A stretch of DNA of 57,631 nt from Candidatus Curtissbacteria bacterium (GTDB lineage: Bacteria > Patescibacteriota > Microgenomatia > Curtissbacterales > GWA2-41-24). Positions within the stretch are counted from its first letter, which is position 1. Every line of letters begins with the position of its first letter. Position numbers and translations under genes: made by a program. Under the pieces are notes generated by a model that was not told the DNA's origin, did not search any database, and was given only the letters and a program-made list of their open reading frames with translations. Shown in pieces: positions 9,477 to 31,518 of this stretch. The stretch lies in NCBI GenBank assembly GCA_024654445.1, contig JANLHP010000017.1, forward strand, positions 210,524-268,154. The letters are read 5' to 3'.

Positions 9477-10844
9477 TTATTCGGCGCATGTCGCTTCGAG
9501 GCCACACCTTGGACATTCTGTTGTGCCAGATCCATAAATGATTATGGTGCCGCAGCGAGGGCAGGGGAAATCGCTGTCGTCTTCGCCAGCATCATTTGTA
9601 GAAGGGGCAAAGTCGGCGGCGGATTGAGCACTGATTGCTTTTGCGAGTCTCGATATGGCAGGGGTGAGACTGAAGCCTTTTTGTTTCCCCGGGCAACCTC
9701 GTCTGCTTGTTTTTGGCATGCGTCTGCCCTTAATTTGGATTTGTTCTTCGATGTCTTCATCGTTTGTGCGAACGAGGTTTCTTGAGGTCCACAAAATTTT
9801 TGCTTTTTCTTGCTTGAACTTTGTAAAAGCATCCTGTTTTACTTTTTTTACTTTTTGTTTGATCTTCTCAACTTCTTCGTCGAAAGTGTTGAGGGTAGTA
9901 TTCCAGATCATTTTGAGTCGCTCTATTGCTAGGGGGGTATCGGCGAGCGTTCGGATGTAGGCTAAAAAATAGGGAATGCAGGGTTCCAATGCCTCTTGAA
10001 GTAGCTCTGTATTTTTTGCCCGATTGTCGAGGGCGAAGTTTTCCAGAATTTGGGGAAGATTAAATTTAGTTTCGGCAGGTCGGGAGAGCATATAGGCAGC
10101 GTTTAAAGTTTGCTCTTGATTTGGTCTTTGGTAGCCTGGGTCTACTTGGCAAAGCGCATCTAAAAACCCGGCATTGGAGTGGTTGGAGTGGTATTTGTTC
10201 GCGGTGATGGTTTCACCATTCTGTTCTATAACGTAAAAAATGTTGTCATGGTAAAGGATGTCGTCGTCCTCGCCTTTTGGTTCCTCTTCTTCGCCGTGTT
10301 TGCAACGTTCCGATCTTGGAGAGGCGACAACTAAGGTGACATCTCTCCTCTCTGCTAGAAGCCTTATTATTTCTTCGAAACCATCAATTTCTGCTAACTC
10401 TCTTTCGACTTCGTTGCTGCCGTTTTCTTCCAGAAATTGTTGACCCTTTTTATATCTTTCGATAACGGGTAGGGGATAATCGTCGCTCCAGAGTTGACTC
10501 TCGTCGTCCAGGTAGTAATGAAAAGTGCTTCTTTCGACCGCCAGACGCTCGCCTAGAGTCTTTTCTAAGTTGTGATAGGTTCTGTCGTTTGTTTGATCAA
10601 GAAGGCTTTCATACTCGGTCTGGGGAATTTTCCCGCGCAGAGGTTGGAGGTCGAGATAATCCTGGATGTCGTGGCGAGGGTTGTAAGCTAGAATTCCTTC
10701 AAAATCTTCGGGTATATTCCAGCGGACCGACTCGCGGGTAACAAGGTGAGACCTTGTCATACAGTGCCATGCGGTCCTCGTCCTTCGGACTGCGGGCCTA
10801 AAGGTCTCTCCTTGTTGATTTAGGTTGCTTGGAATTCGTTCCAT
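9477..10844 (-). CDS. hypothetical 455-aa protein with acidic patch and C-terminal CPxCG…CPxCG zinc ribbon
   Basis: ORF; AGGAGG 8 nt upstream of ATG 10844; C-terminus FPCPRCGTIIIYGSGTTECPRCG. Confidence 0.75.
   Translation of the reverse strand: MERIPSNLNQQGETFRPAVRRTRTAWHCMTRSHLVTRESVRWNIPEDFEGILAYNPRHDIQDYLDLQPLRGKIPQTEYESLLDQTNDRTYHNLEKTLGERLAVERSTFHYYLDDESQLWSDDYPLPVIERYKKGQQFLEENGSNEVERELAEIDGFEEIIRLLAERRDVTLVVASPRSERCKHGEEEEPKGEDDDILYHDNIFYVIEQNGETITANKYHSNHSNAGFLDALCQVDPGYQRPNQEQTLNAAYMLSRPAETKFNLPQILENFALDNRAKNTELLQEALEPCIPYFLAYIRTLADTPLAIERLKMIWNTTLNTFDEEVEKIKQKVKKVKQDAFTKFKQEKAKILWTSRNLVRTNDEDIEEQIQIKGRRMPKTSRRGCPGKQKGFSLTPAISRLAKAISAQSAADFAPSTNDAGEDDSDFPCPRCGTIIIYGSGTTECPRCGLEATCAE
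10743..10813. repeat. A-type stem (AAGGTGAGACCTT / AAGGTCTCTCCTT) whose loop holds a B module; lies inside the first 34 codons of CDS 9477-10844
   Basis: AAGGTGAGACCTT-GTCATACAGTGCCAT-GCGGTCCTC GTCC ttcg GGAC TGCGGGCCTA-AAGGTCTCTCCTT. Confidence 0.75.
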
Positions 10845-11208
10845 TAAAAAACCTCCTATTTAGTCTCGAGGAGGTTTACAAGTCGCTTTAGACCCGCAAT
10901 GCTAATGAGGATCGCAAGCTTCGCTTTTTGGGCGAGTTATCCTGCTCGGGACTATCCTGCGCTAAAGCTTCGGATAGCAAGCTTTTTTAGCTAAGGATTC
11001 CAATCCATTGCGGTATTAGGACTTATACATTGCTTACTAAAGCTTTGTAATTACCTTTGCGGCACAGTTCCGGAGTCAAACCGGATTCCCCGCTTGCCCG
11101 CCTAAATTGAGTCTTTGACTCTATTTGGCGAGGCGATGGAATTTAGATTGTAAATCTAGATTAGCACTGGGGGTGTGAGGAATCAATAGCCCTCGTTTAC
11201 TAAAGCAG

Positions 11209-11441
11209 AAGGTCTCATCCCTGACAGGGTGAGACCTTAAATACTCGGGAGTAACTTTTAGATTTAAGGAATTTTTTAAAATTCCTTGCGGTCCTCGACT
11301 AAAGTCTGCGGGCCTAAAGGTAGGGCACCTCTTCGAGTCTGAGCAATGAGGCTTACCTCAGAGTCGATGACTTTTGAAGACTCCCTCCGTCGCTCTATTA
11401 GAGCAGAGCTCTGGCGAGCAGGCAAGGATGCCACCTTTAAT
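11209..11441. repeat. mosaic block: A hairpin (11209-11238), AAGGAATTTTTTAAAATTCCTT palindrome (11266-11287), B module (11288-11317), full-length C element (~11315-11441)
   Basis: read directly. Confidence 0.8.
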
Positions 11442-11445
11442 CATT

Positions 11446-11937
11446 TCAGCAGCCGTCCGGAAGGATGTTGAAGTTGGGGTTTTGCTGCTTTAGTTCAAAA
11501 TTTAGAATAAACCTAACCGGAAGAGTGCAGAGGTCTTGCTGTTTGAGTTCAAAATCCAAAAACCACTTTTGCGCGAGAACTCTGGATTCAATTGGATTTT
11601 GGTTGACCATTACGAAGAATATATCCGGAGTAGGTACGTAAACAATCCTGAAATCTTGAGATTCAAATAATACGATGTCGCCGTTTTGATTTGATAATTC
11701 CGAAGCTATAATTTTGTCCCTTATCGGTTTTATATCTTTGTTTTCCTGAACAGTTTTTTCTTTAGGAGGGATTATTACTTCTGGAGATAGAGCTGAAGGA
11801 TTTGGTGATTCTAATGGAGTAGGTGACTTCTTGTCGCGTGCCGAAAAGACGCTTAAGAGTATTAAGCCAATTAGGACAAAAATAACCGCAATCGTGAACA
11901 GTGGTGATCTTTGTCTAATCGCGTTTAAATTTAACAT
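11446..11937 (-). CDS. hypothetical single-pass membrane protein (163 aa)
   Basis: N-terminal TM LFTIAVIFVLIGLILLSVF; start overlaps stop of upstream gene (11931-11937). Confidence 0.65.
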   Translation of the reverse strand: MLNLNAIRQRSPLFTIAVIFVLIGLILLSVFSARDKKSPTPLESPNPSALSPEVIIPPKEKTVQENKDIKPIRDKIIASELSNQNGDIVLFESQDFRIVYVPTPDIFFVMVNQNPIESRVLAQKWFLDFELKQQDLCTLPVRFILNFELKQQNPNFNILPDGC

Positions 11938-22838: not shown

Positions 22839-23206
22839 GGGGATGTATTGTTTCGACAGGATGGCTCTTTAAAAACTGCAAGCCGAATACGATTCTAAGT
22901 GCGTCAAACTTGAATCAAATTTACGTGCAGACAGAGATGTCTCACCGGCTCCAAGAGGCTTTGCTTTTGCATAAGTTTCTTTAAGAGTCTGTCTTTTAAG
23001 TCTTTTCTCGACGTGACTTACTAGGCAACAACTCAGTCGAGAGTAGGACTTAGGTTCTGATCAAACCTCAGTCTGAAACTTAGATCTTTGTTCTAAATTA
23101 GCCTGTTAATCGGCCACAATTTAAAACGAGATTTTATAGATTAAATAAGCTTGTAGATGTTTTTAAAATGTTTTCTTGGACGAGGGCTCAAAACCCTCCA
23201 TCTCCA
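22839..23206 (+). ncRNA. ssrA: tmRNA (SsrA)
   Basis: 5' GGGGATGTATTGTTTCGACAGGATGG…; 3' GGACGAGGGCTCAAAACCCTCCATCTCCA with acceptor pairing GGGGATG/CATCTCC incl. G3:U70; in-frame tag ending …GFAFA-TAA (stop 22972-22974); smpB adjacent. Confidence 0.9.
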
Positions 23207-23219
23207 CACACTCTCTCTG

Positions 23220-23991: not shown

Positions 23992-24666
23992 ATGGCTTTA
24001 TCTTTTTTAGATTTGGTTTTTCCCAAGCGCTGTGTTTCTTGCCGTAGGCTTGGAAATTATATATGTACTGATTGTTTTTTGAAAATTGAGTTTTTGGAAC
24101 ATCCGGTTTGCCCGGTTTGCCAGAGACAGGCAATAGGTGGGCGAGTACACCCTGGGTGTAAGACGCTGTATACGTTGGACGGACTAGTAGTTGCTTGTAA
24201 ATATAGAGGTCCGGTTCGAAATGCGATAAAGAAGGTGAAATATAGATGGGTTCGAAGCATCGAAAAGGTTTTAGTCGATCTTTTGGTCTCGCAAATTTGG
24301 AGGTTTGACTTACCGGAGGATGTAATCCTGGTGCCAGTCCCACTTCATATTAAACGTGAAAGGTGGAGAGGATTTAACCAGTCCGAAATTTTGGCAAGCA
24401 CCCTAGGGAGAGAATTCAAAGTTCAGTCTAATCTATCGATTAATCGATTAATCGATACAAAAGCGCAAGTAAGGCTGGATAGAAAAGCAAGGAAAGAAAA
24501 TGTGAAAGGGGCTTTCGCTATTGCGAGGGGTGCAAAAGTAGAAGGGACAAATATTATATTAGTGGATGATGTTTATACGAGCGGTTCGACGATGAGCGAG
24601 TGCGCAAAAGTTTTAAAAAAAGCTGGCGCAAAAAGCGTTTTGGGAGCAGCAATTGCTCTGGGGTAA
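23992..24666 (+). CDS. ComF-family phosphoribosyltransferase-like protein
   Basis: N-terminal CxxC…CxxC zinc fingers (CVSCRR…CTDC, CPVC…HPGC) and PRTase motif IILVDDVYTSGSTM; ATG 23992 preferred over upstream TTG. Confidence 0.8.
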   Translation: MALSFLDLVFPKRCVSCRRLGNYICTDCFLKIEFLEHPVCPVCQRQAIGGRVHPGCKTLYTLDGLVVACKYRGPVRNAIKKVKYRWVRSIEKVLVDLLVSQIWRFDLPEDVILVPVPLHIKRERWRGFNQSEILASTLGREFKVQSNLSINRLIDTKAQVRLDRKARKENVKGAFAIARGAKVEGTNIILVDDVYTSGSTMSECAKVLKKAGAKSVLGAAIALG

Positions 24667-24677
24667 CTCTCCACCAT

Positions 24678-24833
24678 GTCATTATGTAGCCCTTCACTCC
24701 TGTCATCCTGAGCGGAGCGAAGGATCTGTCCTTTGTTCAGGGTAAACTCCGCGCGAGAATCTTTTCTAGATCCTATTTCGAGTTCGCGAGAAACAAGCTC
24801 TCTTTTCGTGGTCGTTGCCACTCCAGGATGACA
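24678..24833. repeat. 156-nt GTCATYCTG-family element, paralog of 27354-27503
   Basis: …CCTGTCATCCTGAGCGGAGCGAAGGATCTGTCCTTTGTTCAGGGTAAACTCCGCG…CTCCAGGATGACA. Confidence 0.75.
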
Positions 24834-24847
24834 AGGGCGATGCATTT

Positions 24848-24856
24848 TGGTAGAAT
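24848..24856 (+). promoter_or_regulatory. extended -10 TGGTAGAAT, 9 nt before ATG 24866
   Basis: sequence match only. Confidence 0.45.
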
Positions 24857-24865
24857 TTGGCCGAT

Positions 24866-25567
24866 ATGACTGAATCTGACGCAGGAACAATACACTCACA
24901 AGCAGAACAAGCTCGCGAACGAGGGGATTTTACAGAAGCATTGAAGCTTACTGAGGATGCTTTCGCCGCTTATAATTCCGAAGGAAATGGTGCTAAAGCT
25001 GCTGAAGTCTTAGCGTCGAAGACCTTAACTCTTCGCCACTTATATGAGCAGACTGGGGATATATCTTATTTGGATCAGGCAAAAGAAGAGGCTAGAAGAT
25101 CGGTCCAGGTTGCTACAGCCAGCGGTGTTGGTGGAGCCACGATTTTGCCTCGTTACAATTTAGCAAAAGTCTTAGAAACTTCTGGAGAATTAGAAGAAGC
25201 TACGGGAGTAATGGAAGGGGTTGTTGATGACATGATGAAAAATCCTCCCGAGGAGCTTAAACGTCCATCTGTTAAAGCGGAAATGGAAGTAAGACTTGCA
25301 ACTTTCGAGTATAGAGGTGGCGATAAGAGTGCTTTAGAGCGAGCAGAAAAATCACTTTCAGACCTTGAAGCAGCGGATGAACCAGATGAGTATGCCAGAG
25401 ATGTTTGGGTTTCTGGTGGCCATATGAAAATTGCCGCGATGTTAGTTGAAGATGATCCTGCGAAGGCAAAAGAACACTTAGAAAAAGCAAGAGCAATTAT
25501 TGACGGTAACCCTAAATTAACACTTCGAAGAGCTCAATTCGAAAAACTCTCCCAAAGCTTCAGTTAA
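24866..25567 (+). CDS. hypothetical helical-repeat (TPR-like) protein
   Basis: ORF; ATG 24866 lies 9 nt after TGGTAGAAT (24848-24856). Confidence 0.6.
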   Translation: MTESDAGTIHSQAEQARERGDFTEALKLTEDAFAAYNSEGNGAKAAEVLASKTLTLRHLYEQTGDISYLDQAKEEARRSVQVATASGVGGATILPRYNLAKVLETSGELEEATGVMEGVVDDMMKNPPEELKRPSVKAEMEVRLATFEYRGGDKSALERAEKSLSDLEAADEPDEYARDVWVSGGHMKIAAMLVEDDPAKAKEHLEKARAIIDGNPKLTLRRAQFEKLSQSFS

Positions 25568-25595
25568 CTCCAAATCCTGAATAAATACTAGACAA

Positions 25596-25874
25596 TGGCG
25601 GAGGAGGTGGGATTTACAACTAAAGTTGTAGTATAGTGCACTTCGCTTGCACTATAAACGAACCCTTCCTGCGGAGGCGAGAGGATTCGAACCTCTGAGA
25701 GCCTTACGGCCCTAGTTGTTTTCAAGACAACCGCACTAGTCCACTATGCGACGCCTCCGAGTTGTCCAATTATCGCACTAGTCCACATTAGGCCCGCAGA
25801 TCTGCTATGCAGATCGAGGACCGCATGCCATGGCCCTGAGTAATCGAAGGGGCACTGTATATGCGACCTCTCCC
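25596..25874 (-). other. tRNA-Ser-like outer shell (5' acceptor/D-arm piece with 72-nt D-loop insert; T-arm/acceptor/CCA piece with 44-nt T-loop insert) enclosing tRNA-Ser(UGA)
   Basis: minus-strand reading GGGAGAGGTCGCATA[72 nt]TGTGGACTAGTGCG…[tRNA]…GGAAGGGTTCG[44 nt]AATCCCACCTCCTCCGCCA; compare genuine GGAGGCGTCGCATAGTGGACTAGTGCG and GGGTTCGAATCCCACCTCCTCCGCC. Confidence 0.6.
25672..25758 (-). tRNA. tRNA-Ser(UGA), class II
   Basis: folded by hand: acceptor GGAGGCG/CGCCTCC, anticodon stem GTTGT/ACAAC, loop CTTGAAA, 18-nt variable arm, T-arm AGAGG-TTCGAAT-CCTCT. Confidence 0.9.
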
Positions 25875-25877
25875 AGT

Positions 25878-25950
25878 TGGCGGAGGAGGTGGGATGTGCG
25901 CTTTTTGCGCGAATAGTGCACTCCGTTTACACTATTTACGAACCAATGGG
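25878..25950 (-). other. orphan tRNA-Ser 3'-half-like fragment with 43-nt T-loop insert, immediately downstream of tRNA-Ser(GCU)
   Basis: minus strand …GGTTCG[TAAATAGTGTAAACGGAGTGCACTATTCGCGCAAAAAGCGCAC]ATCCCACCTCCTCCGCCA. Confidence 0.55.
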
Positions 25951-26012
25951 TTCTCATCAGCCACCTCTCTTTTACAAAATTAGGACTAAAAAAGCCCAAT
26001 TTCGCAAAAGGG

Positions 26013-26101
26013 CGGAGGAGGTGGGATTCGAACCCACGCGAGCCGGTAAAGGCTCAAGGGTTTAGCAAACCCTCGCAATGGACCAACTATGCGACTCCTC
26101 C
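26013..26101 (-). tRNA. tRNA-Ser(GCU), class II
   Basis: acceptor GGAGGAG/CTCCTCC, anticodon stem AGGGT/ACCCT, loop TTGCTAA, 19-nt variable arm, T-arm GTGGG-TTCGAAT-CCCAC. Confidence 0.9.
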
Positions 26102-26150
26102 TAAATTGCTGCCTCATTTTACCAGAGACAGGTTTGTACATCAATGAATT

Positions 26151-26663
26151 ATGAGTTATATTTACCGCAATAATCTTAAGATTGGTACTGTGATTCTTAA
26201 TTTCAATCTCACCAGAAGAAACTTACTCGCAATTTTTCTTGGTTTTTTAGTGTTCTTGGTGCTTTTTATAGTGGCAAAAGTGTTAGTTTTATTCACATTT
26301 CATCAAGCGGTGTTGAATTTTCCTTTAGGAGATATTGAGGGTTCTCTTTCCCGTCAGCCATTTGCTGCCATCCTTTGGATATCAAGAACCTTGTCACTAA
26401 TGGCTCCGTTATTAGGAGGAGTTGTAATAGGTTATATGGTTAGAGAAAGAGGATGGTTTTATGGTGGTTTGCTGGGAGTTTTACTGGCAATTATTTTTAT
26501 GGGAATTATCTCTCTAGGTTTTTTTGTGCCCGAATCTTTTAATCCCAACTCATTCGGCGAGATTATACTTGAGGTGATTTTTTACTTGCCTTTATATGTA
26601 GTTTTGACTGCTCTTGGAGGTTGGTTGGGAGAAATACTTAAAAACAGGAAGTCATTGGTTTGA
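26151..26663 (+). CDS. hypothetical polytopic membrane protein
   Basis: ORF with 4-5 hydrophobic helices. Confidence 0.6.
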   Translation: MSYIYRNNLKIGTVILNFNLTRRNLLAIFLGFLVFLVLFIVAKVLVLFTFHQAVLNFPLGDIEGSLSRQPFAAILWISRTLSLMAPLLGGVVIGYMVRERGWFYGGLLGVLLAIIFMGIISLGFFVPESFNPNSFGEIILEVIFYLPLYVVLTALGGWLGEILKNRKSLV

Positions 26664-26692
26664 TCTTTTTGTGATAAACTAAAACTGCCAAA

Positions 26693-27268
26693 ATGCCCAG
26701 ATTCCACAAAACAGACGTAAACGTAGACCATCACTCCGGCAGAGTTATTTCCAAGGAAGAACTTGATGCCAAAAGACAGGCAGCGGTTGAATCCAGAACG
26801 ATAGTTTCCTGGAAATCTCCGGTCCACATTTTTAAACAAAGGTCTAAAAAATACTTCACAAAAGTGGCGCTTTACGCGTTTGTCTTTATTCTGGCGGCGA
26901 TCGCTTTTGGAGAATTTTTCTTGGTCGGTGTAATTATCGCTTTGGTTTTTGTTGTTTATGTATTTGCCAATTCTGCTCCAGAGGTAATTGAACACAAAAT
27001 TACTAATTTGGGGATAATCAGCGGTGGGCGAGTATTTTTATGGGAAGAGCTGGATTCTTTTTGGTTCGATAAAAAGGGAGATGAGAGGCTGCTTTTGGTG
27101 CAAACTCACATGCATTTTCCTTCGCGGTTGATCTTGATTCTGACAACGATTTCGGAAAGAACCCTTTTAGAGCAACTGGAAAGACATCTCCATTATCACG
27201 CTGCACCGGTGCACACACTTTTGGATAAATGGGCCCATAAACTTCAGAGTAAAATAAGCTTAGATTAG
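26693..27268 (+). CDS. hypothetical membrane protein
   Basis: ORF, two central TM helices. Confidence 0.6.
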   Translation: MPRFHKTDVNVDHHSGRVISKEELDAKRQAAVESRTIVSWKSPVHIFKQRSKKYFTKVALYAFVFILAAIAFGEFFLVGVIIALVFVVYVFANSAPEVIEHKITNLGIISGGRVFLWEELDSFWFDKKGDERLLLVQTHMHFPSRLILILTTISERTLLEQLERHLHYHAAPVHTLLDKWAHKLQSKISLD

Positions 27269-27353
27269 CCTTCTGAAGCTTGCGGTACTCGTTCTGAAAC
27301 AGAACTCCGTGCCTAAAACTCCAAAGCAAAATTTCATTGGATTAATTTTTATT

Positions 27354-27503
27354 GTCATTCTGGAGCCCTTCATTCCTGTCATCCTGAGCGGAGCGAAGGA
27401 ATCGTCCTTTGTTCATGATAAACTCCGCGACAGAATCTATCCTTGAGATCCTATTCGAAGAAAAGCTTTGCTTATCGGTCGTTTTACTCCCTCCAGGATG
27501 ACA
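27354..27503. repeat. 150-nt GTCATYCTG-family element with TIR TGTCATTCTGGAG / CTCCAGGATGACA
   Basis: long stretches identical to 24678-24833. Confidence 0.75.
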
Positions 27504-27528
27504 ACCCTTAATGTACACAGCCTTCGGC

Positions 27529-27537
27529 TGGTATAAT
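27529..27537 (+). promoter_or_regulatory. extended -10 promoter TGGTATAAT upstream of tRNA-Arg
   Basis: 40 nt upstream of mature tRNA 5' end. Confidence 0.55.
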
Positions 27538-27576
27538 TACGACGTTAAGTTGCGAGCAAAATTGGATATTATGTTT

Positions 27577-27653
27577 GTCCCTGTAGTTCAATTGGACAGA
27601 ACGCTTCCCTGCGAAGGAAGAGATTGGCCGTTCGAGTCGGCCCAGGGGCACCA
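27577..27653 (+). tRNA. tRNA-Arg(GCG) with encoded CCA
   Basis: acceptor GTCCCTG/CAGGGGC, D-stem GTTC/GAAC, anticodon stem CTTCC/GGAAG, loop CTGCGAA, T-arm GGCCG-TTCGAGT-CGGCC, ACCA end; TGGTATAAT 40 nt upstream. Confidence 0.9.
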
Positions 27654-27659
27654 TTTAAT

Positions 27660-27938
27660 ATGAAACTGACAGACGAAGAGGTACAAAATAAAATAAAAGA
27701 TTTACCGCTGTGGAAATATTCCGACGGTTTTCTTAGCAGAGAGCTGGAGTTTAACAGTTTTAGCGAGGCGCTGGAATTTGTAAATAATGTCGGTAAATTG
27801 GCGGAAAAGATGAATCATCATCCAAATATTTTGATGCATGATTACAAGAAAGTAGATATCACAACTTCTACTCACGACGAAGGTGGTGTTACCGCAAAAG
27901 ACTTTGAGTTAGCAAGGGGAATCGAGGAACTGACTTAA
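27660..27938 (+). CDS. pterin-4a-carbinolamine dehydratase (PCD/DCoH family)
   Basis: …FNSFSEALEFVNNVGKLAEKMNHHPNILMHDYKKVDITTSTHDEGGVT…; start moved to ATG 27660 because track start overlaps tRNA-Arg. Confidence 0.8.
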   Translation: MKLTDEEVQNKIKDLPLWKYSDGFLSRELEFNSFSEALEFVNNVGKLAEKMNHHPNILMHDYKKVDITTSTHDEGGVTAKDFELARGIEELT

Positions 27939-28384
27939 TGATCAAATGTACATTCGAAAATGGGACGCCGGCTTCTTTGAGGCATGTTGTGGTGGATGCG
28001 ATTGTAGTAAACAAAAAGAAAGAAATTTTACTCGTTAAGCGATCAAAAGATAAAGTTACAGAGGGTGGTAAGTGGGCACTGCCTGGGGGATTTATGGATC
28101 GAGACGAAACATTAATTGAAGCTGTTCTAAGAGAAACGAAAGAAGAAACAGGCTGGGAAATTGGGGACGTGGAGCTTTTGAGGGTTGTTGATAATCCGAA
28201 AAGGAGAAATGAGGATAGGCAGAACGTTGCATTTTTTTACACATGTGTTCCTGTTAAGAAATCCGGTAAAGCAGACGACGAATCAAGTGAGCAGAGATGG
28301 TTTAAGTTAGATGGGTTGCCTGAAGAGGAAGAAACGGCCTTCGATCATCTGGAAATTATCGAGTTTTATTTAAGGAATAAGTAG
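27938..28384 (+). CDS. NUDIX hydrolase
   Basis: Nudix box GGKWALPGGFMDRDETLIEAVLRETKEETG. Confidence 0.85.
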   Translation: MIKCTFENGTPASLRHVVVDAIVVNKKKEILLVKRSKDKVTEGGKWALPGGFMDRDETLIEAVLRETKEETGWEIGDVELLRVVDNPKRRNEDRQNVAFFYTCVPVKKSGKADDESSEQRWFKLDGLPEEEETAFDHLEIIEFYLRNK

Positions 28385-28470
28385 GAGGCGTCGCATAGTG
28401 GACTAGTGCGGTCGTTTCGAAAACGACTTTCGGGGCAACTCGAACGCAGGTTCGAATCCTGCCGCCTCCG
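28384..28470 (+). tRNA. tRNA-Ser(CGA), class II
   Basis: acceptor GGAGGCG/CGCCTCC, anticodon stem GTCGT/ACGAC, loop TTCGAAA, 18-nt variable arm, T-arm GCAGG-TTCGAAT-CCTGC; first nt overlaps NUDIX stop. Confidence 0.9.
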
Positions 28471-28490
28471 CCTTCGTCCGACGAAGAATT

Positions 28491-28898
28491 ATGAAAAGAG
28501 TTTTTAGTGCTGGTGGAATAGTAGTAAGGGATTTTGATGGCGAGAAAAAGGTTCTGGTCACTCAACATTCCGGCCATCATGGTTGGGATTTTCCAAAAGG
28601 ACATGTGGAGAAAGGTGAAAAGAGTGTTGATGCTGCAATTCGTGAGGTGGAGGAAGAGACTGGAGTTAAAGCGGAAGTTGTCGAAAAGGTTGGAGACACG
28701 AAGTATTTTTACGACGAGGAGAAGGAGAAAGTTTTTAAGACGGTTGTTTATTTTTTAATGAAATATGTAGAAGAAGGTGAAGCGACTACAGCTTGGGAGG
28801 TTTCTGCAAAAGAGTGGCTACCTGTCGACGAAGTAGAAGATAAATTAACGTTTGGTGATTCTAAAAAACTATTTAGTGAGGTAAAGAGTAGAATTTAA
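28491..28898 (+). CDS. NUDIX hydrolase
   Basis: Nudix box WDFPKGHVEKGEKSVDAAIREVEEETG. Confidence 0.85.
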   Translation: MKRVFSAGGIVVRDFDGEKKVLVTQHSGHHGWDFPKGHVEKGEKSVDAAIREVEEETGVKAEVVEKVGDTKYFYDEEKEKVFKTVVYFLMKYVEEGEATTAWEVSAKEWLPVDEVEDKLTFGDSKKLFSEVKSRI

Positions 28899-28906
28899 TA
28901 AATTCT

Positions 28907-28943
28907 GCGGTCCTCGTCGAGCGTGGCTCGACTGCGGGCCTAA
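28907..28943 (+). repeat. module B stem-loop element (GCGGTCCTC-hairpin-TGCGGGCCTAA), solo copy
   Basis: GCGGTCCTC GTCGAGC gtg GCTCGAC TGCGGGCCTAA. Confidence 0.7.
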
Positions 28944-28961
28944 GAATAAGTGATTAAATTT

Positions 28962-29224
28962 GGAGGAGTCGCATATACAGTGCCCCTTCCATAACTCAGG
29001 GCCATGGCATGCGGTCCTCGACTAAAGTCTGCGGGCCTAATGTGGACTAGTCAGACATGGTGGGATGCGAGAGTGGTTTAATCGGCGGACCTGGAAAGTC
29101 CGTGTAGTCGTAAGATTACCGTGGGTTCGAATCCCACTCCCACCGCAGGAGAACGAGGAGGTTGGTAAATAGTGCAACTGAAAGGCACTATTCGCGCGAA
29201 TGCGCACATCCCTCCTCCTCCGCA
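28962..29224 (+). other. second tRNA-Ser-like outer shell (65-nt D-loop insert, 42-nt T-loop insert) enclosing tRNA-Ser(GGA)
   Basis: GGAGGAGTCGCATA[65 nt]TGTGGACTAGTCAGACAT[tRNA]GGAGAACGAGGAGGTTGG[42 nt]ATCCCTCCTCCTCCGCA; outer acceptor GGAGGAG/CTCCTCC fully complementary. Confidence 0.6.
29059..29145 (+). tRNA. tRNA-Ser(GGA), class II
   Basis: acceptor GGTGGGA/TCCCACC, anticodon stem CGGAC/GTCCG, loop CTGGAAA, long variable arm, T-arm GTGGG-TTCGAAT-CCCAC. Confidence 0.9.
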
Positions 29225-29239
29225 TCGGTTTGACGACAG

Positions 29240-29734
29240 ATGAAAAATATTTCTTTAGACGAATTAAATAGGTTTTTAGGAGAGGCTTCTCTTAAAACTT
29301 ATGCTGGAACCGGTGTGGAGACGAAGGCTACAATAAAGGGTTTTAAAGAATTGGAGTATAGGGATGGCGATTGGTATTACAGGGATAATTACACGGGCTT
29401 TTTTAAATCTTGGGGACAGGAAGTAGTTTGGTATAAGGATCAGCCCGTCTGGATGAGTCTTTACGGAGGAGGTTTGGAGAAAGAATTTTATGGAGACGAA
29501 GCCTTTGCAATTAAAATCTTTAATTTTTTAAAAAAGGCATTATCTTCCGGGGAAAAGTCCAAGAACTTTCAGCCCAGAGGCCCCAAAAATTTAAGTGATG
29601 GGGATTGGGTTTATCATTGTCAATGGACTGGAGATTTATCAGATTTCAAAGGTCATGAAGAAATTTTATATAAAGGCAGGGTGGTATTTACCCACGATTT
29701 TATTGGGGGAGTAGTTATTCCGAGAAAAGTGTAG
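29240..29734 (+). CDS. hypothetical protein (resembles DUF5680-type domain)
   Basis: ORF; family assignment from memory of …YRDGDWYYRDNYTGFF…-type sequences, unverified. Confidence 0.55.
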   Translation: MKNISLDELNRFLGEASLKTYAGTGVETKATIKGFKELEYRDGDWYYRDNYTGFFKSWGQEVVWYKDQPVWMSLYGGGLEKEFYGDEAFAIKIFNFLKKALSSGEKSKNFQPRGPKNLSDGDWVYHCQWTGDLSDFKGHEEILYKGRVVFTHDFIGGVVIPRKV

Positions 29735-29748
29735 AATACAGGGCGCAG

Positions 29749-31518
29749 ATGGACCAGGTAGACGAGGTTAAGAGCAAGGTAGACATTGTAGAAGTTATTT
29801 CTTCTTATATTCCTTTAAAAAAAGCTGGGCGTAATTATTCGGGGCTTTGCCCGTTTCACGGAGAAAAGACGCCTTCTTTTATGGTTTCTCCGGAACGCCA
29901 GGCTTTTAAGTGTTTCGGTTGTGGTGAAGGTGGAGATGTTTTTACGTTTCTGGAAAAGCAGGAAGGTTGGGATTTTAAGGAAACCTTGGAGGAGTTGGCA
30001 AAAAGAGCTGGTGTTACGCTTCGTGACTTTAAACCGACGAAACAAAGTACTCAGAAAGAAAAATTATTAGAAATTCACAAGCTTTCGGAAAAGTTTTATA
30101 ACTACATACTTTTGGAGCACAAAAGCGGTGAAAGAGCACGGGATTATTTGAAGAACAGGGGAGTCGAGCGCGATTTGTGGGAAAAATTTGGAATAGGTTT
30201 TGCGCCAAAAGGTTGGGAGAATCTAGCTGGATTTTTAGCTAAGCACAAATTTAATTTGGCGGACATTTCGACTGCGGGGCTGGTTGTTGGCAGGAGCGGC
30301 AGAGCGGGATCTTACTACGATCGGTTCCGCGAAAGAATTATGTTTCCTCTCAAAGATTCGCGAGGTGTAATTATGGGTTTTGCGGGGCGAGTTTTAGACG
30401 CAAATGCCAAAGAAGCAAAATACGTCAACAGTCCGCAAACGCCTATATACAATAAAGGCTCTTTGCTTTTTGGATTGGATTTGGCAAGGAATGCGATTCG
30501 CGAGAAAAATGAAGCAGTTTTAGTCGAAGGTGAATTTGACGTAATTTCTGCCCATAAAGCCGGAGTTTTGAACGTTGTTGCTTCTAAGGGAACAGCGCTT
30601 ACAGAAGGACAGGTGGCGATTCTTTCCAGGATTTGCGACAAAGTTATAGTTTGCTTCGATACGGATTTGGCCGGGGATGCTGCAGCGAGGCGGGGAATAG
30701 AACTTTTGGATCTTGCGGGGGTAAGCATTCGAGTTGCAGACATGGGTAAGTTTAAAGATCCGGATGAATTTGCGCAAAATGATCCTGCGGGTTTTGCCCA
30801 AGCGCTGGAAAAAAGCAAAGACGTTTATGATTATTTTATAGATTCAGCAAGCAGCAGGTTTAATGCAACGAGCAGTGAAGGTAAAAAGAAAATCGGGCGT
30901 GAGGTTTTGCCGATTTTGGGCAAGATTACGGACGACTTGGTGAGAGCGCACTATATCGCCAGGCTTGCTAAGGTGTTGGACCTTGATGTTCAATTGGTTT
31001 CGGAGGCTGTCAGTAAAAAGTCCACGTTTATTGGTAGTAGTGATGTTCCAGGCCAGGGTGTTGTTAATAAACAGGTGAGTCAGGAGGATTATTTTCTGGC
31101 GCTTTTGGTTTACAAAGAGGACATTGTAAGTGACTTTTTTGAGATACTTAAGGCGCAAGACTTTACAAGTGACAGTGCGAAGAAGTTTTGGGTGGCGCTG
31201 CGTGGTATAATTAAGGATCCTAAAATCCGGACTATGAGCCGGGCAGTAGGTAAACTGCCAAAAGATCTTTCCGATTATTGCGACCATCTATATCTTGTCA
31301 ACCTAAGCCTAGAGTTTGACGATAGGGAATTGTGGGCGCAAGAGGTAATAAAAATTAGCGGTATGATAAAGCGAGCGTCACTTAAAAGACAGCTTGAAGG
31401 ATTGTCACAGAAGCTAAAAGAGGCTCAAAACAAGGAAAATGACCGCGAAATTGGAATTTTACTCGCGCAATTTGGGAAGATATCAGAAGACATTCGACAA
31501 CTAGAAGCAAATAGTTAA
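29749..31518 (+). CDS. dnaG: DNA primase DnaG
   Basis: zinc finger [34 protein letters not shown]; [24 protein letters not shown] … [14 protein letters not shown]. Confidence 0.92.

Follow-up and report, generated by a model that had tools for sequence, protein, structure and literature searches.

The T loops of transfer RNA (tRNA) genes are established targets of integrases. Among described repeats, the Rickettsia palindromic elements (RPEs) are found in both protein and RNA genes: Rickettsia bellii carries 526 of them, of which 53 lie in protein genes and one in the transfer-messenger RNA (tmRNA) gene (PMC1458961), and the in-frame fusions that they form have been reviewed (PMC10969869). 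In archaea, non-canonical introns can occur in the loops of tRNAs, and tRNA genes of this kind have been described (PMC3241643, PMC3728597). Here we analysed a stretch of 57,631 nt from a Candidatus Curtissbacteria bacterium of the candidate phyla radiation (CPR, Patescibacteria; contig JANLHP010000017.1, positions 210,524 to 268,154; hereafter the window), in which an intact tRNA-Ser(UGA) gene is nested within the broken pieces of a second tRNA-Ser-like sequence, called the shell. Our favoured explanation, to which we give a probability of about 0.72, is that this shell and a second one in the window are relics of displaced tRNA-Ser pseudogenes colonised by selfish hairpin DNA. The insert in the D loop of the shells, element A, is a selfish palindromic repeat that acts at the DNA level and occurs in many copies in Curtissbacteria and other CPR.

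Shell 1 runs from 25874 to 25596 on the minus strand around tRNA-Ser(UGA), and shell 2 from 28962 to 29224 on the plus strand around tRNA-Ser(GGA) at 29059-29146 (Table 1). Intact tRNAs were called with ARAGORN and Rfam RF00005. The seven pieces of shell 1 that the preliminary description had listed were all found in place on the minus strand, and the two hairpins that it had drawn in the T-loop insert (element B) were confirmed: a conserved hairpin ATAGTGCA-N7-TGCACTAT and a variable hairpin TACAAC-TTTA-GTTGTA. The Ser-like pieces of the outer acceptor stem and T arm are likewise real, but they make poor stems in shell 1, where the acceptor strands pair imperfectly (GGAGAGG against CTCCTCC) and the T stem is down to 3 bp. 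Element A consists of a variable first hairpin (AAG..CTT or TACAGTGCC..GGCAT), the half-site GCGGTCCTCG, a hypervariable second hairpin and the half-site CTGCGGGCCTAA. Element B consists of T(A/T)(A/C)AT, a conserved hairpin AGTGCA-N7-TGCACT, AT and a second hairpin. The recurrence of the architecture at a second locus had been taken as an argument against chance, and searches of the window for the insert motifs, scored against shuffled sequence, agreed with this, giving 5, 3 and 2 matches where 0.00 were expected. The repetition at the second locus reflects a recurrent process at the DNA level, not function.

Table 1. Coordinates of element A and B copies, tRNA-Ser relics and intact tRNA-Ser genes in the window
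Feature	Position	Strand	Remarks
Element A copy outside tRNA sequence	10760..10803	+	antisense to the open reading frame (ORF) 9480-10760, between the Shine-Dalgarno (SD)-like GGAGAG and ATG
Element A copy, degenerate	10889..10915	-	
Element A core	11288..11317	+	hairpin AAGGAATTTT..AAAATTCCTT just upstream
Shell 1, 3' relic AATCCCACCTCCTCCGCCA	25596..25614	-	AATCCCAC + acceptor 3' strand CTCCTCC + G + CCA
Shell 1, element B in T loop	25615..25658	-	44 nt, between G57 and A58
Shell 1, AGGAA linker, then GGGTTCG	25659..25670	-	GGGTTCG = T-stem 5' strand + first half of T loop
Working gene, intact tRNA-Ser(UGA)	25671..25758	-	GGAGGCG-type allele; ARAGORN; Rfam RF00005, 54.7 bits
Shell 1, remaining D arm TGTGGACTAGTGCG + decayed anticodon-arm remnant ATAATTGGACAACTC	25759..25787	-	
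Shell 1, element A in D loop	25788..25859	-	72-73 nt, edge ambiguous (25787/8); order TACAGTGCC..GGCAT hairpin, GCGGTCCTCG, variable hairpin, CTGCGGGCCTAA
Shell 1, 5' relic GGGAGAGGTCGCATA	25860..25874	-	acceptor 5' strand + D-stem 5' strand; GGAGAGG-type tRNA-Ser(UGA) allele
3'-only relic downstream of tRNA-Ser(GCU)	25878..25944	-	GGTTCG + 43-nt element B (25938-25896) + ATCCCACCTCCTCCGCCA
Spacer with long AU-rich hairpin	25945..26010	-	between tRNA-Ser(GCU) and its 3' relic
Intact tRNA-Ser(GCU)	26011..26101	-	ARAGORN, Rfam
Element A copy, degenerate	27282..27315	+	directly 3' of the stop codon of ORF 26693-27268
Element A copy, solo	28890..28943	+	overlap of its first hairpin with the NUDIX stop codon (gene 28491-28898)
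Shell 2, 5' relic GGAGGAGTCGCATA	28962..28975	+	14/14 identical to intact L131 tRNA-Ser(GGA)
Shell 2, element A in D loop	28976..29040	+	
Shell 2, remaining D arm TGTGGACTAGT + old anticodon-stem 5' strand CAGAC + AT	29041..29058	+	
Working gene, intact tRNA-Ser(GGA)	29059..29146	+	different allele (GGTGGGA..TCCCACC); ARAGORN, Rfam
Shell 2, linker + degenerate T-stem 5' strand GAGGAGGTTGG	29147..29165	+	
Shell 2, element B in T loop	29166..29207	+	
Shell 2, 3' relic ATCCCTCCTCCTCCGCA	29208..29224	+	

Relatives were fetched using as a syntenic anchor the hypothetical protein gene at 26693-27268, which lies between tRNA-Ser(GCU) and tRNA-Arg. The resulting comparison set comprised 12 orthologous tRNA-Ser clusters of other Curtissbacteria (L125-L136), all of which contain Ser-GCU, Ser-UGA, Arg-GCG, Ser-CGA, Ser-GGA, NUDIX and DnaG. 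In these relatives, the GCU and UGA genes are usually separated by 4 to 10 nt, and the GGA gene lies plain between NUDIX and DnaG. The nested shell was present in none of the 12 clusters, the nearest relatives included. Nine clusters had plain tRNA-Ser genes without any relic, and relics were scattered, occurring only in L127, L129 and L136. The preliminary description had held that a shell missing both from relatives with plain tRNA-Ser genes and from precursor RNAs would be decaying debris; as far as DNA is concerned, this is the state of the relatives.

The pieces of the shells could be traced to intact alleles in the same clusters. Three pieces of shell 2 were identical over 14/14, 9/9 and 16/16 nt to the intact tRNA-Ser(GGA) of L131, the last match covering the first 16 nt of the 3' relic (ATCCCTCCTCCTCCGC) and the 3' end of the gene. 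The L131 gene occupies the same NUDIX/DnaG position at which shell 2 is found in the window. Similarly, the 5' piece of shell 1 equals the 5' end of an intact GGAGAGG-type UGA allele that directly follows the GCU gene in the nearest relatives, L133 and L126. The 3' relic of the GCU gene, a 4-nt spacer (ACTG) and the 5' piece of shell 1 together reproduce the old GCU-UGA gene junction of the relatives. The working GGAGGCG-type UGA allele of the window is also intact in L128, L129 and L132. An encoded CCA occurs in several intact tRNA-Ser alleles of the relatives too, and that of the relics is not special.

The clade has several tRNA-Ser alleles per anticodon, which are distributed patchily across the genomes and differ in their acceptor stems, and two main D-arm types (GTCGCATAGTGGACTAGTGCG and GTGCCRGAGTGG..). 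Other genomes combine these alleles in comparable ways. In a second species (L111, equal to L121, L123 and L124), the shell corresponds to the GGA allele of the L126/L132 type and the inner gene has the other D-arm type, and in L122 a CGA gene is nested in like manner. The reciprocal case was found in L136, in which a truncated GGAGGCG-type relic comes after a UGA gene of the GGAGAGG type. L127 and L129 carry orphan 3' relics, and a module homologous to the GCU 3' relic of the window lies at the same place in L136. Hairpin spacers lie at the same place as the one next to tRNA-Ser(GCU) in both L136 and L124. A scan of metagenomes with the D-loop junction word returned 4 loci only, 3 of them from the same species as L111. 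We also observed that the tRNA-Ser alleles of L125-L136, L124 and the window are mosaics in which either of the two D-arm types is joined to one of several acceptor stems. The CGA gene of L135, for instance, has the variable arm, T arm and acceptor stem of the window UGA allele. This pattern points to an exchange of anticodon arms or to recombination among the Ser genes.

According to ARAGORN, the window has an intact gene for each of the four Ser isoacceptors. Without elements A and B and the inner tRNA, the two shells amount to 75 nt and 69 nt, and their anticodon and variable arms are gone. ARAGORN found no tRNA in these insert-free sequences, with the intron mode on or off and also with a lowered threshold, and Rfam searches at E<=1 matched the inner tRNAs only and not the shell. 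Since no tRNA is left after removal of the inserts and intact genes exist for all Ser anticodons, the shell is better understood as a displaced resident gene than as a second layer of one gene. The same results speak against a multi-intron or split tRNA-Ser gene with spliced inserts, comparable to the disrupted tRNA genes of archaea and red algae. The support for such a gene is positional, its inserts being found in both the D and T loops and at the place of the anticodon. However, removing the inserts restores neither an anticodon arm nor a variable arm, and the supposed D-loop intron is a repeat that is present both ways round in proteins and spacers. We regard this reading as almost certainly wrong, and the transcribed scaffold and the multi-intron or split gene named as possibilities in the preliminary description are not supported.

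In the favoured explanation, a new tRNA-Ser allele would have entered the resident gene, or the resident gene would have been duplicated and partly overwritten. The new allele would have come first, or together with the disruption, rendering the old gene dispensable; the old copy would then have lost its middle by deletion and gathered hairpin elements. A different working allele of the same isoacceptor would thereby come to sit where the old anticodon and variable arms were, flanked by what survives of the old gene, a 5' piece with acceptor and D arm and a 3' piece with T arm, acceptor and CCA. This process would have occurred at least three times in the cluster, affecting the old UGA gene (shell 1), the old GGA gene (shell 2) and the old GCU gene (3' piece only). 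The relics are probably non-functional. The idea of an old tRNA-Ser pseudogene with mobile modules, raised from the start, therefore survives in large part, as the pieces match the intact allele of relatives at the same place and the insert in the D loop is one copy of a palindromic repeat that is dispersed.

Several observations weigh against this explanation. Element A occupies the same D-loop position in all four shells, the architecture recurs in three genomes with different inner tRNAs, and the inner gene starts 3 to 15 nt after the D arm in all four shells. Such recurrence would call for some targeted process, but no such process came to light, and neither a transposase or integrase nor a target-site duplication (TSD) was found. 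In addition, the acceptor 3' strand of 5 of the 9 relic 3' pieces is exactly that of the upstream intact tRNA, in genomes whose alleles differ. Constraint, and not duplication or gene conversion, could be behind this. The hairpins of A and B are perfect despite their differing sequences, and plain decay would not preserve the pairing. Finally, the shells of the window were seen in a single assembly. The last point is shared with the reading that the nesting is an artefact of metagenome assembly, in which strain alleles were mis-joined via shared 20-nt tRNA words, and long identical words (GTCGCATAGTGGACTAGTGCG, GGTTCGAATCC) are indeed common to tRNA-Ser alleles. However, the same architecture in the other species is identical over >800 nt in four independent records (the NCBI metagenome-assembled genome (MAG) L111 and the JGI contigs L121, L123 and L124), the junctions hold unique sequence (A and B) that no intact allele carries, and related relics are present in further assemblies (L136 and L127). 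We consider an artefact highly improbable.

How the relics formed, as distinct from what they are, may be explained differently. They may be att-like debris of a miniature site-specific integrating element aimed at the T loop of tRNA-Ser (and tRNA-Tyr). Such an element would carry with it either a whole tRNA-Ser gene or a tRNA 3' end of its own. The chromosome's original end would then be the distal 3' piece, and element B and the hairpin spacer would be the remains of the element. Direct repeats of the last 14 to 18 nt of the tRNA lie 118 to 180 nt downstream (+118 for the window GCU gene, +152 for L124 UGA, +179 for L124 GGA and +143 for L080 Tyr), and the T-loop break is constant at G57/A58. 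Furthermore, the spacer and B module are homologous in the window, in L136 (after GCU) and in L124, covering GCU and GGA contexts, and the cluster is an insertion hot spot that is rearranged between genomes, with insertion sequence (IS), toxin-antitoxin and GIY-YIG genes inserted in some relatives. However, neither within the copies nor next to them is there a gene for an integrase or recombinase, and only 70 to 180 nt of hairpins separate the repeats. A normal attR is an uninterrupted tRNA 3' fragment, as in L129, and not one split by a hairpin, and the 5' relics and the missing 20 to 35 nt of the old gene would require further deletions. Att-site debris, also suggested earlier, thus offers a possible origin for the 3' duplicates, but its integrase and element body are not present, and we regard it as a serious but less likely alternative for the formation step.

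Some of the evidence could also be read as a sign that the shell is still in use. The shell, or its GCCA-ending 3' module, would then be a functional RNA co-transcribed with the inner tRNA, its outer stem guiding processing by RNase P/Z; in another version of this unlikely reading, it would give rise to a tRNA-like RNA in two pieces, or to a minihelix RNA, ending in CCA. The outer acceptor strands are complementary and yet genome-specific (GGAGGAG/CTCCTCC in shell 2, GGAGAGG/CCTCTCC in L124), and the hairpins are perfect with differing sequences. The relic 3' strands follow the allele of the upstream tRNA in the window and in L136, and a live shell would account for this tracking. The folds are more stable than those of shuffled sequences (z of -3.1 to -6.9), though the palindromes and the real tRNA inside contribute much of the stability. 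Against a functional RNA stand the lack of nested shells in all 12 orthologous clusters, the acceptor-stem mismatch and 3-bp T stem of shell 1, and the 5' relic boundary, which varies among shells from tRNA position 26 to about 44. In addition, the complementarity of the outer strands is fully accounted for by descent from one tRNA allele, the hairpins of element A are strand-symmetric and indifferent to the direction of transcription, and no Rfam family matches. Displaced relics therefore remain our preferred reading. There is, moreover, a small probability that one type of tRNA-Ser allele is the specific target of elements A and B, in its D and T loops, and that lineages survive by acquiring a resistant allele. 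If true, such allele targeting would amount to serial replacement of tRNA genes driven by selfish DNA.

Observations on other tRNA genes and on the neighbourhood of the cluster may be added here. In L080 (1283-1445), the T arm and acceptor 3' strand of tRNA-Tyr(GTA) recur downstream of that gene as a relic, which holds a hairpin insert of ~75 nt at the same T-loop position with a sequence other than that of element B. In L114 (2900-2962), a tRNA-Glu has a 14-nt duplicate of its own 5' end 56 nt upstream. These two cases indicate that the relic phenomenon is not confined to tRNA-Ser. Upstream of the orphan B module in L127, positions 2360-2400 hold a minihelix-like sequence (GGGAGCG..GGGTCCCAGACCC..GCTCCGCCA) with a GCCA end, which is probably another decayed tRNA relic. 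Small GIY-YIG ORFs of about 80 to 95 aa adjoin tRNA-Ser genes or relics in several genomes, for example in L124 (7881-8130, and downstream of its GGA shell) and in L129 (3671-3910). The window also contains a standard tmRNA gene (22839-23209, plus strand; Rfam, 113 bits), and in relatives smpB and the tmRNA gene lie just upstream of the same tRNA-Ser cluster.

Candidate ribozymes and introns were rejected. A hammerhead, considered on account of CTGATGAG at 25960-25953, had no Rfam match, and its core is not conserved in the modules of L124 or L136. With thresholds of E<=1 for 24000-30500 and E<=5 for 10400-11800, neither the hammerhead nor HDV-like, twister, pistol or hatchet ribozymes gave a match. 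Remnants of group I or II introns had no Rfam match, and the inserts are far too small for them. Our searches of the literature on CPR tRNA introns and Microgenomates ribozymes found nothing relevant.

Element A is present in the window in 5 copies with an exact core and 2 degenerate ones, which makes 7 against 0.04 expected. When species-representative genomes were scanned with the conserved core of the insert, it was found in genome contigs at >120 loci, mostly in Candidatus Curtissbacteria and other low-GC CPR MAGs; matches in high-GC genomes were chance matches in coding sequence. The low-GC CPR loci yielded 95 non-identical copies with 66 different apical segments. Continuous pairing of the apical segment was found in 71 of the 95 copies, with a mean of 3.7 bp compared to 1.6 bp in shuffles. 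The stems contained 287 Watson-Crick pairs, 9 G:T and 6 A:C, so that the top-strand excess of G·U pairs sought as a mark of selection on RNA was not found (9 versus 6). Stems that are Watson-Crick on both strands indicate a palindrome at the DNA level rather than selection on a one-strand RNA. Between co-directional genes, 19 copies lie on the same strand and 17 on the opposite strand, without orientation bias, and convergent and divergent spacers hold 8 and 7 copies, respectively. An RNA-level cis element (terminator, 3' stabiliser or part of a riboswitch) was rejected on the basis of the missing orientation bias, the missing preference for convergent genes and the strand-symmetric stems.

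Element A is also found in frame, in both orientations, within uninterrupted ORFs of conserved proteins. The hosts are AlaRS, CysRS, ArgRS, a class-I aminoacyl-tRNA synthetase (aaRS), LepA in two genomes (in the same loop), trigger factor, an HhH-GPD glycosylase (Nth) and an MBL hydrolase (loci L061, L103, L022, L044, L102, L036, L090, L021 and L025). Translated one way the element reads ..LRSS..AGLK, and the other way LGPQ..RGPH. LepA orthologues with 72-79% identity lack the insert of 11 to 13 aa and thus represent empty sites; the D loops of intact tRNA-Ser alleles contain no element A. The element has no ORF of its own. No consistent terminal inverted repeat (TIR) or TSD was seen by eye at its flanks, the ends being ambiguous by 1-2 nt at the D-loop site, and no Rfam family matches it. 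In the fold of the shell, the core is complementary to the 5' region of tRNA-Ser (GAGGTCGCAT / ATGCGGTCCTC); copies outside tRNA sequences have no such flanks, and this pairing was not used. A search of the literature on palindromic elements in Patescibacteria found no description of element A, which does not prove that it is undescribed.

Further features of individual copies were noted. Two copies of the window (27282-27315 and 28890-28943, both on the plus strand) lie at or overlap the stop codons of upstream genes. The copy at the SD-like GGAGAG and ATG 10760 is inside an inverted repeat, GGTGAGACCTT / AAGGTCTCTCC, and folding of the palindrome would bring back a normal SD-ATG distance. 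The leader of ORF 9480-10760, an ORF without a Pfam match, holds three element A copies; the ORF is preceded by a cobalamin-riboswitch-like match (10992-11153, minus strand) with 29.5 bits, just below the gathering score of 31.5. In L037 (1700-1950) and L066 (180-300), element A is arranged in short tandem arrays that repeat every ~60-80 nt. Some low-GC MAGs with element A (L006, L008, L009, L013, L021 and others) are titled 'uncultured Gammaproteobacteria', although their genes and repeats are CPR-like, and these titles may be wrong.

Element B is a rarer hairpin module than element A and was seen only in tRNA-Ser relics. In ~1.1 Mb of fetched CPR DNA, it occurred only between G57 and A58 of the T loops of these relics, with three copies in the window and others in L136, L127 and L111/L124. 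The 3' ends of the relics that carry it are of the GCU/UGA, GGA and CGA types. Its second hairpin is wholly different between copies (TACAAC/GTTGTA, GCGC/GCGC, GTGCGC/GCGCAC, TTCGC/GCGAA and TATTCC/GGAATA). These variable stems were read directly, because the MAFFT alignment lost register in the variable hairpin.

The nested tRNA calls for no new RNA biology; it records the turnover of tRNA genes in an ultra-small CPR genome. In this clade, the alleles of tRNA-Ser genes are interchangeable and take each other's place. The interest of the shell itself is modest, and an RPE-like family in CPR and the serial replacement of tRNA-Ser alleles are worth more. Element A occurs in aaRSs, LepA, trigger factor and tRNA relics as well as between a ribosome-binding site and a start codon, and it is relevant to the persistence of selfish DNA in ~1-Mb genomes. 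It also matters for the annotation of CPR genomes, where it splits gene calls or makes them odd, and produces false 'insertions' in marker proteins as well as fragments of pseudo-tRNAs.

Several known systems share features with the shells. Like the attL/attR tRNA fragments of islands and prophages, the relics include 3' ends duplicated downstream of an intact tRNA, a break in the T loop and a hot-spot location. However, there is no integrase or island here, the 'element' consists of ~70-180 nt of hairpins, the T loop of the relic is split by a hairpin, and 5' relics are present too, leaving the working gene nested. The disrupted tRNA genes of archaea and Cyanidioschyzon likewise have tRNA-like sequence broken at several loop positions. 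They reconstitute a complete tRNA and need an endonuclease that recognises a bulge-helix-bulge (BHB) motif, whereas the shell cannot reconstitute a tRNA and its interruptions are DNA repeats. As in tmRNA and tRNA scaffolds, an acceptor stem, T arm and CCA surround foreign sequence in the place of the anticodon arm, but tmRNA is conserved, whereas the shell is degenerate, missing from relatives and without an Rfam match.

For element A, the closest parallels are other small repeats. MITEs (miniature transposable elements with inverted repeats) and repetitive extragenic palindromic (REP) sequences are also small, non-autonomous, hairpin-forming and multi-copy. For element A, no TIRs or TSD, the marks of a MITE, could be defined by eye, and in contrast to REPs, it is not confined to extragenic DNA and shows no preference for convergent genes. 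By our comparison, element A resembles the RPEs in behaviour, the analogy being one of function. Both are short, free of ORFs and hairpin-forming, with many copies per small genome, and both occur in spacers, in frame in unrelated housekeeping protein genes and in a structured RNA gene. Element A differs from the RPEs in coming from another phylum, in its length (~40-75 nt compared to ~100-150 nt) and in its RNA-gene hosts, which are dead relics and not a working gene. Furthermore, its half-sites GCGGTCCTCG / CTGCGGGCCTAA are conserved around a hypervariable but paired apical hairpin, with a second variable hairpin on the 5' side, and it is read either way round, as ..LRSS..AGLK or as LGPQ..RGPH.

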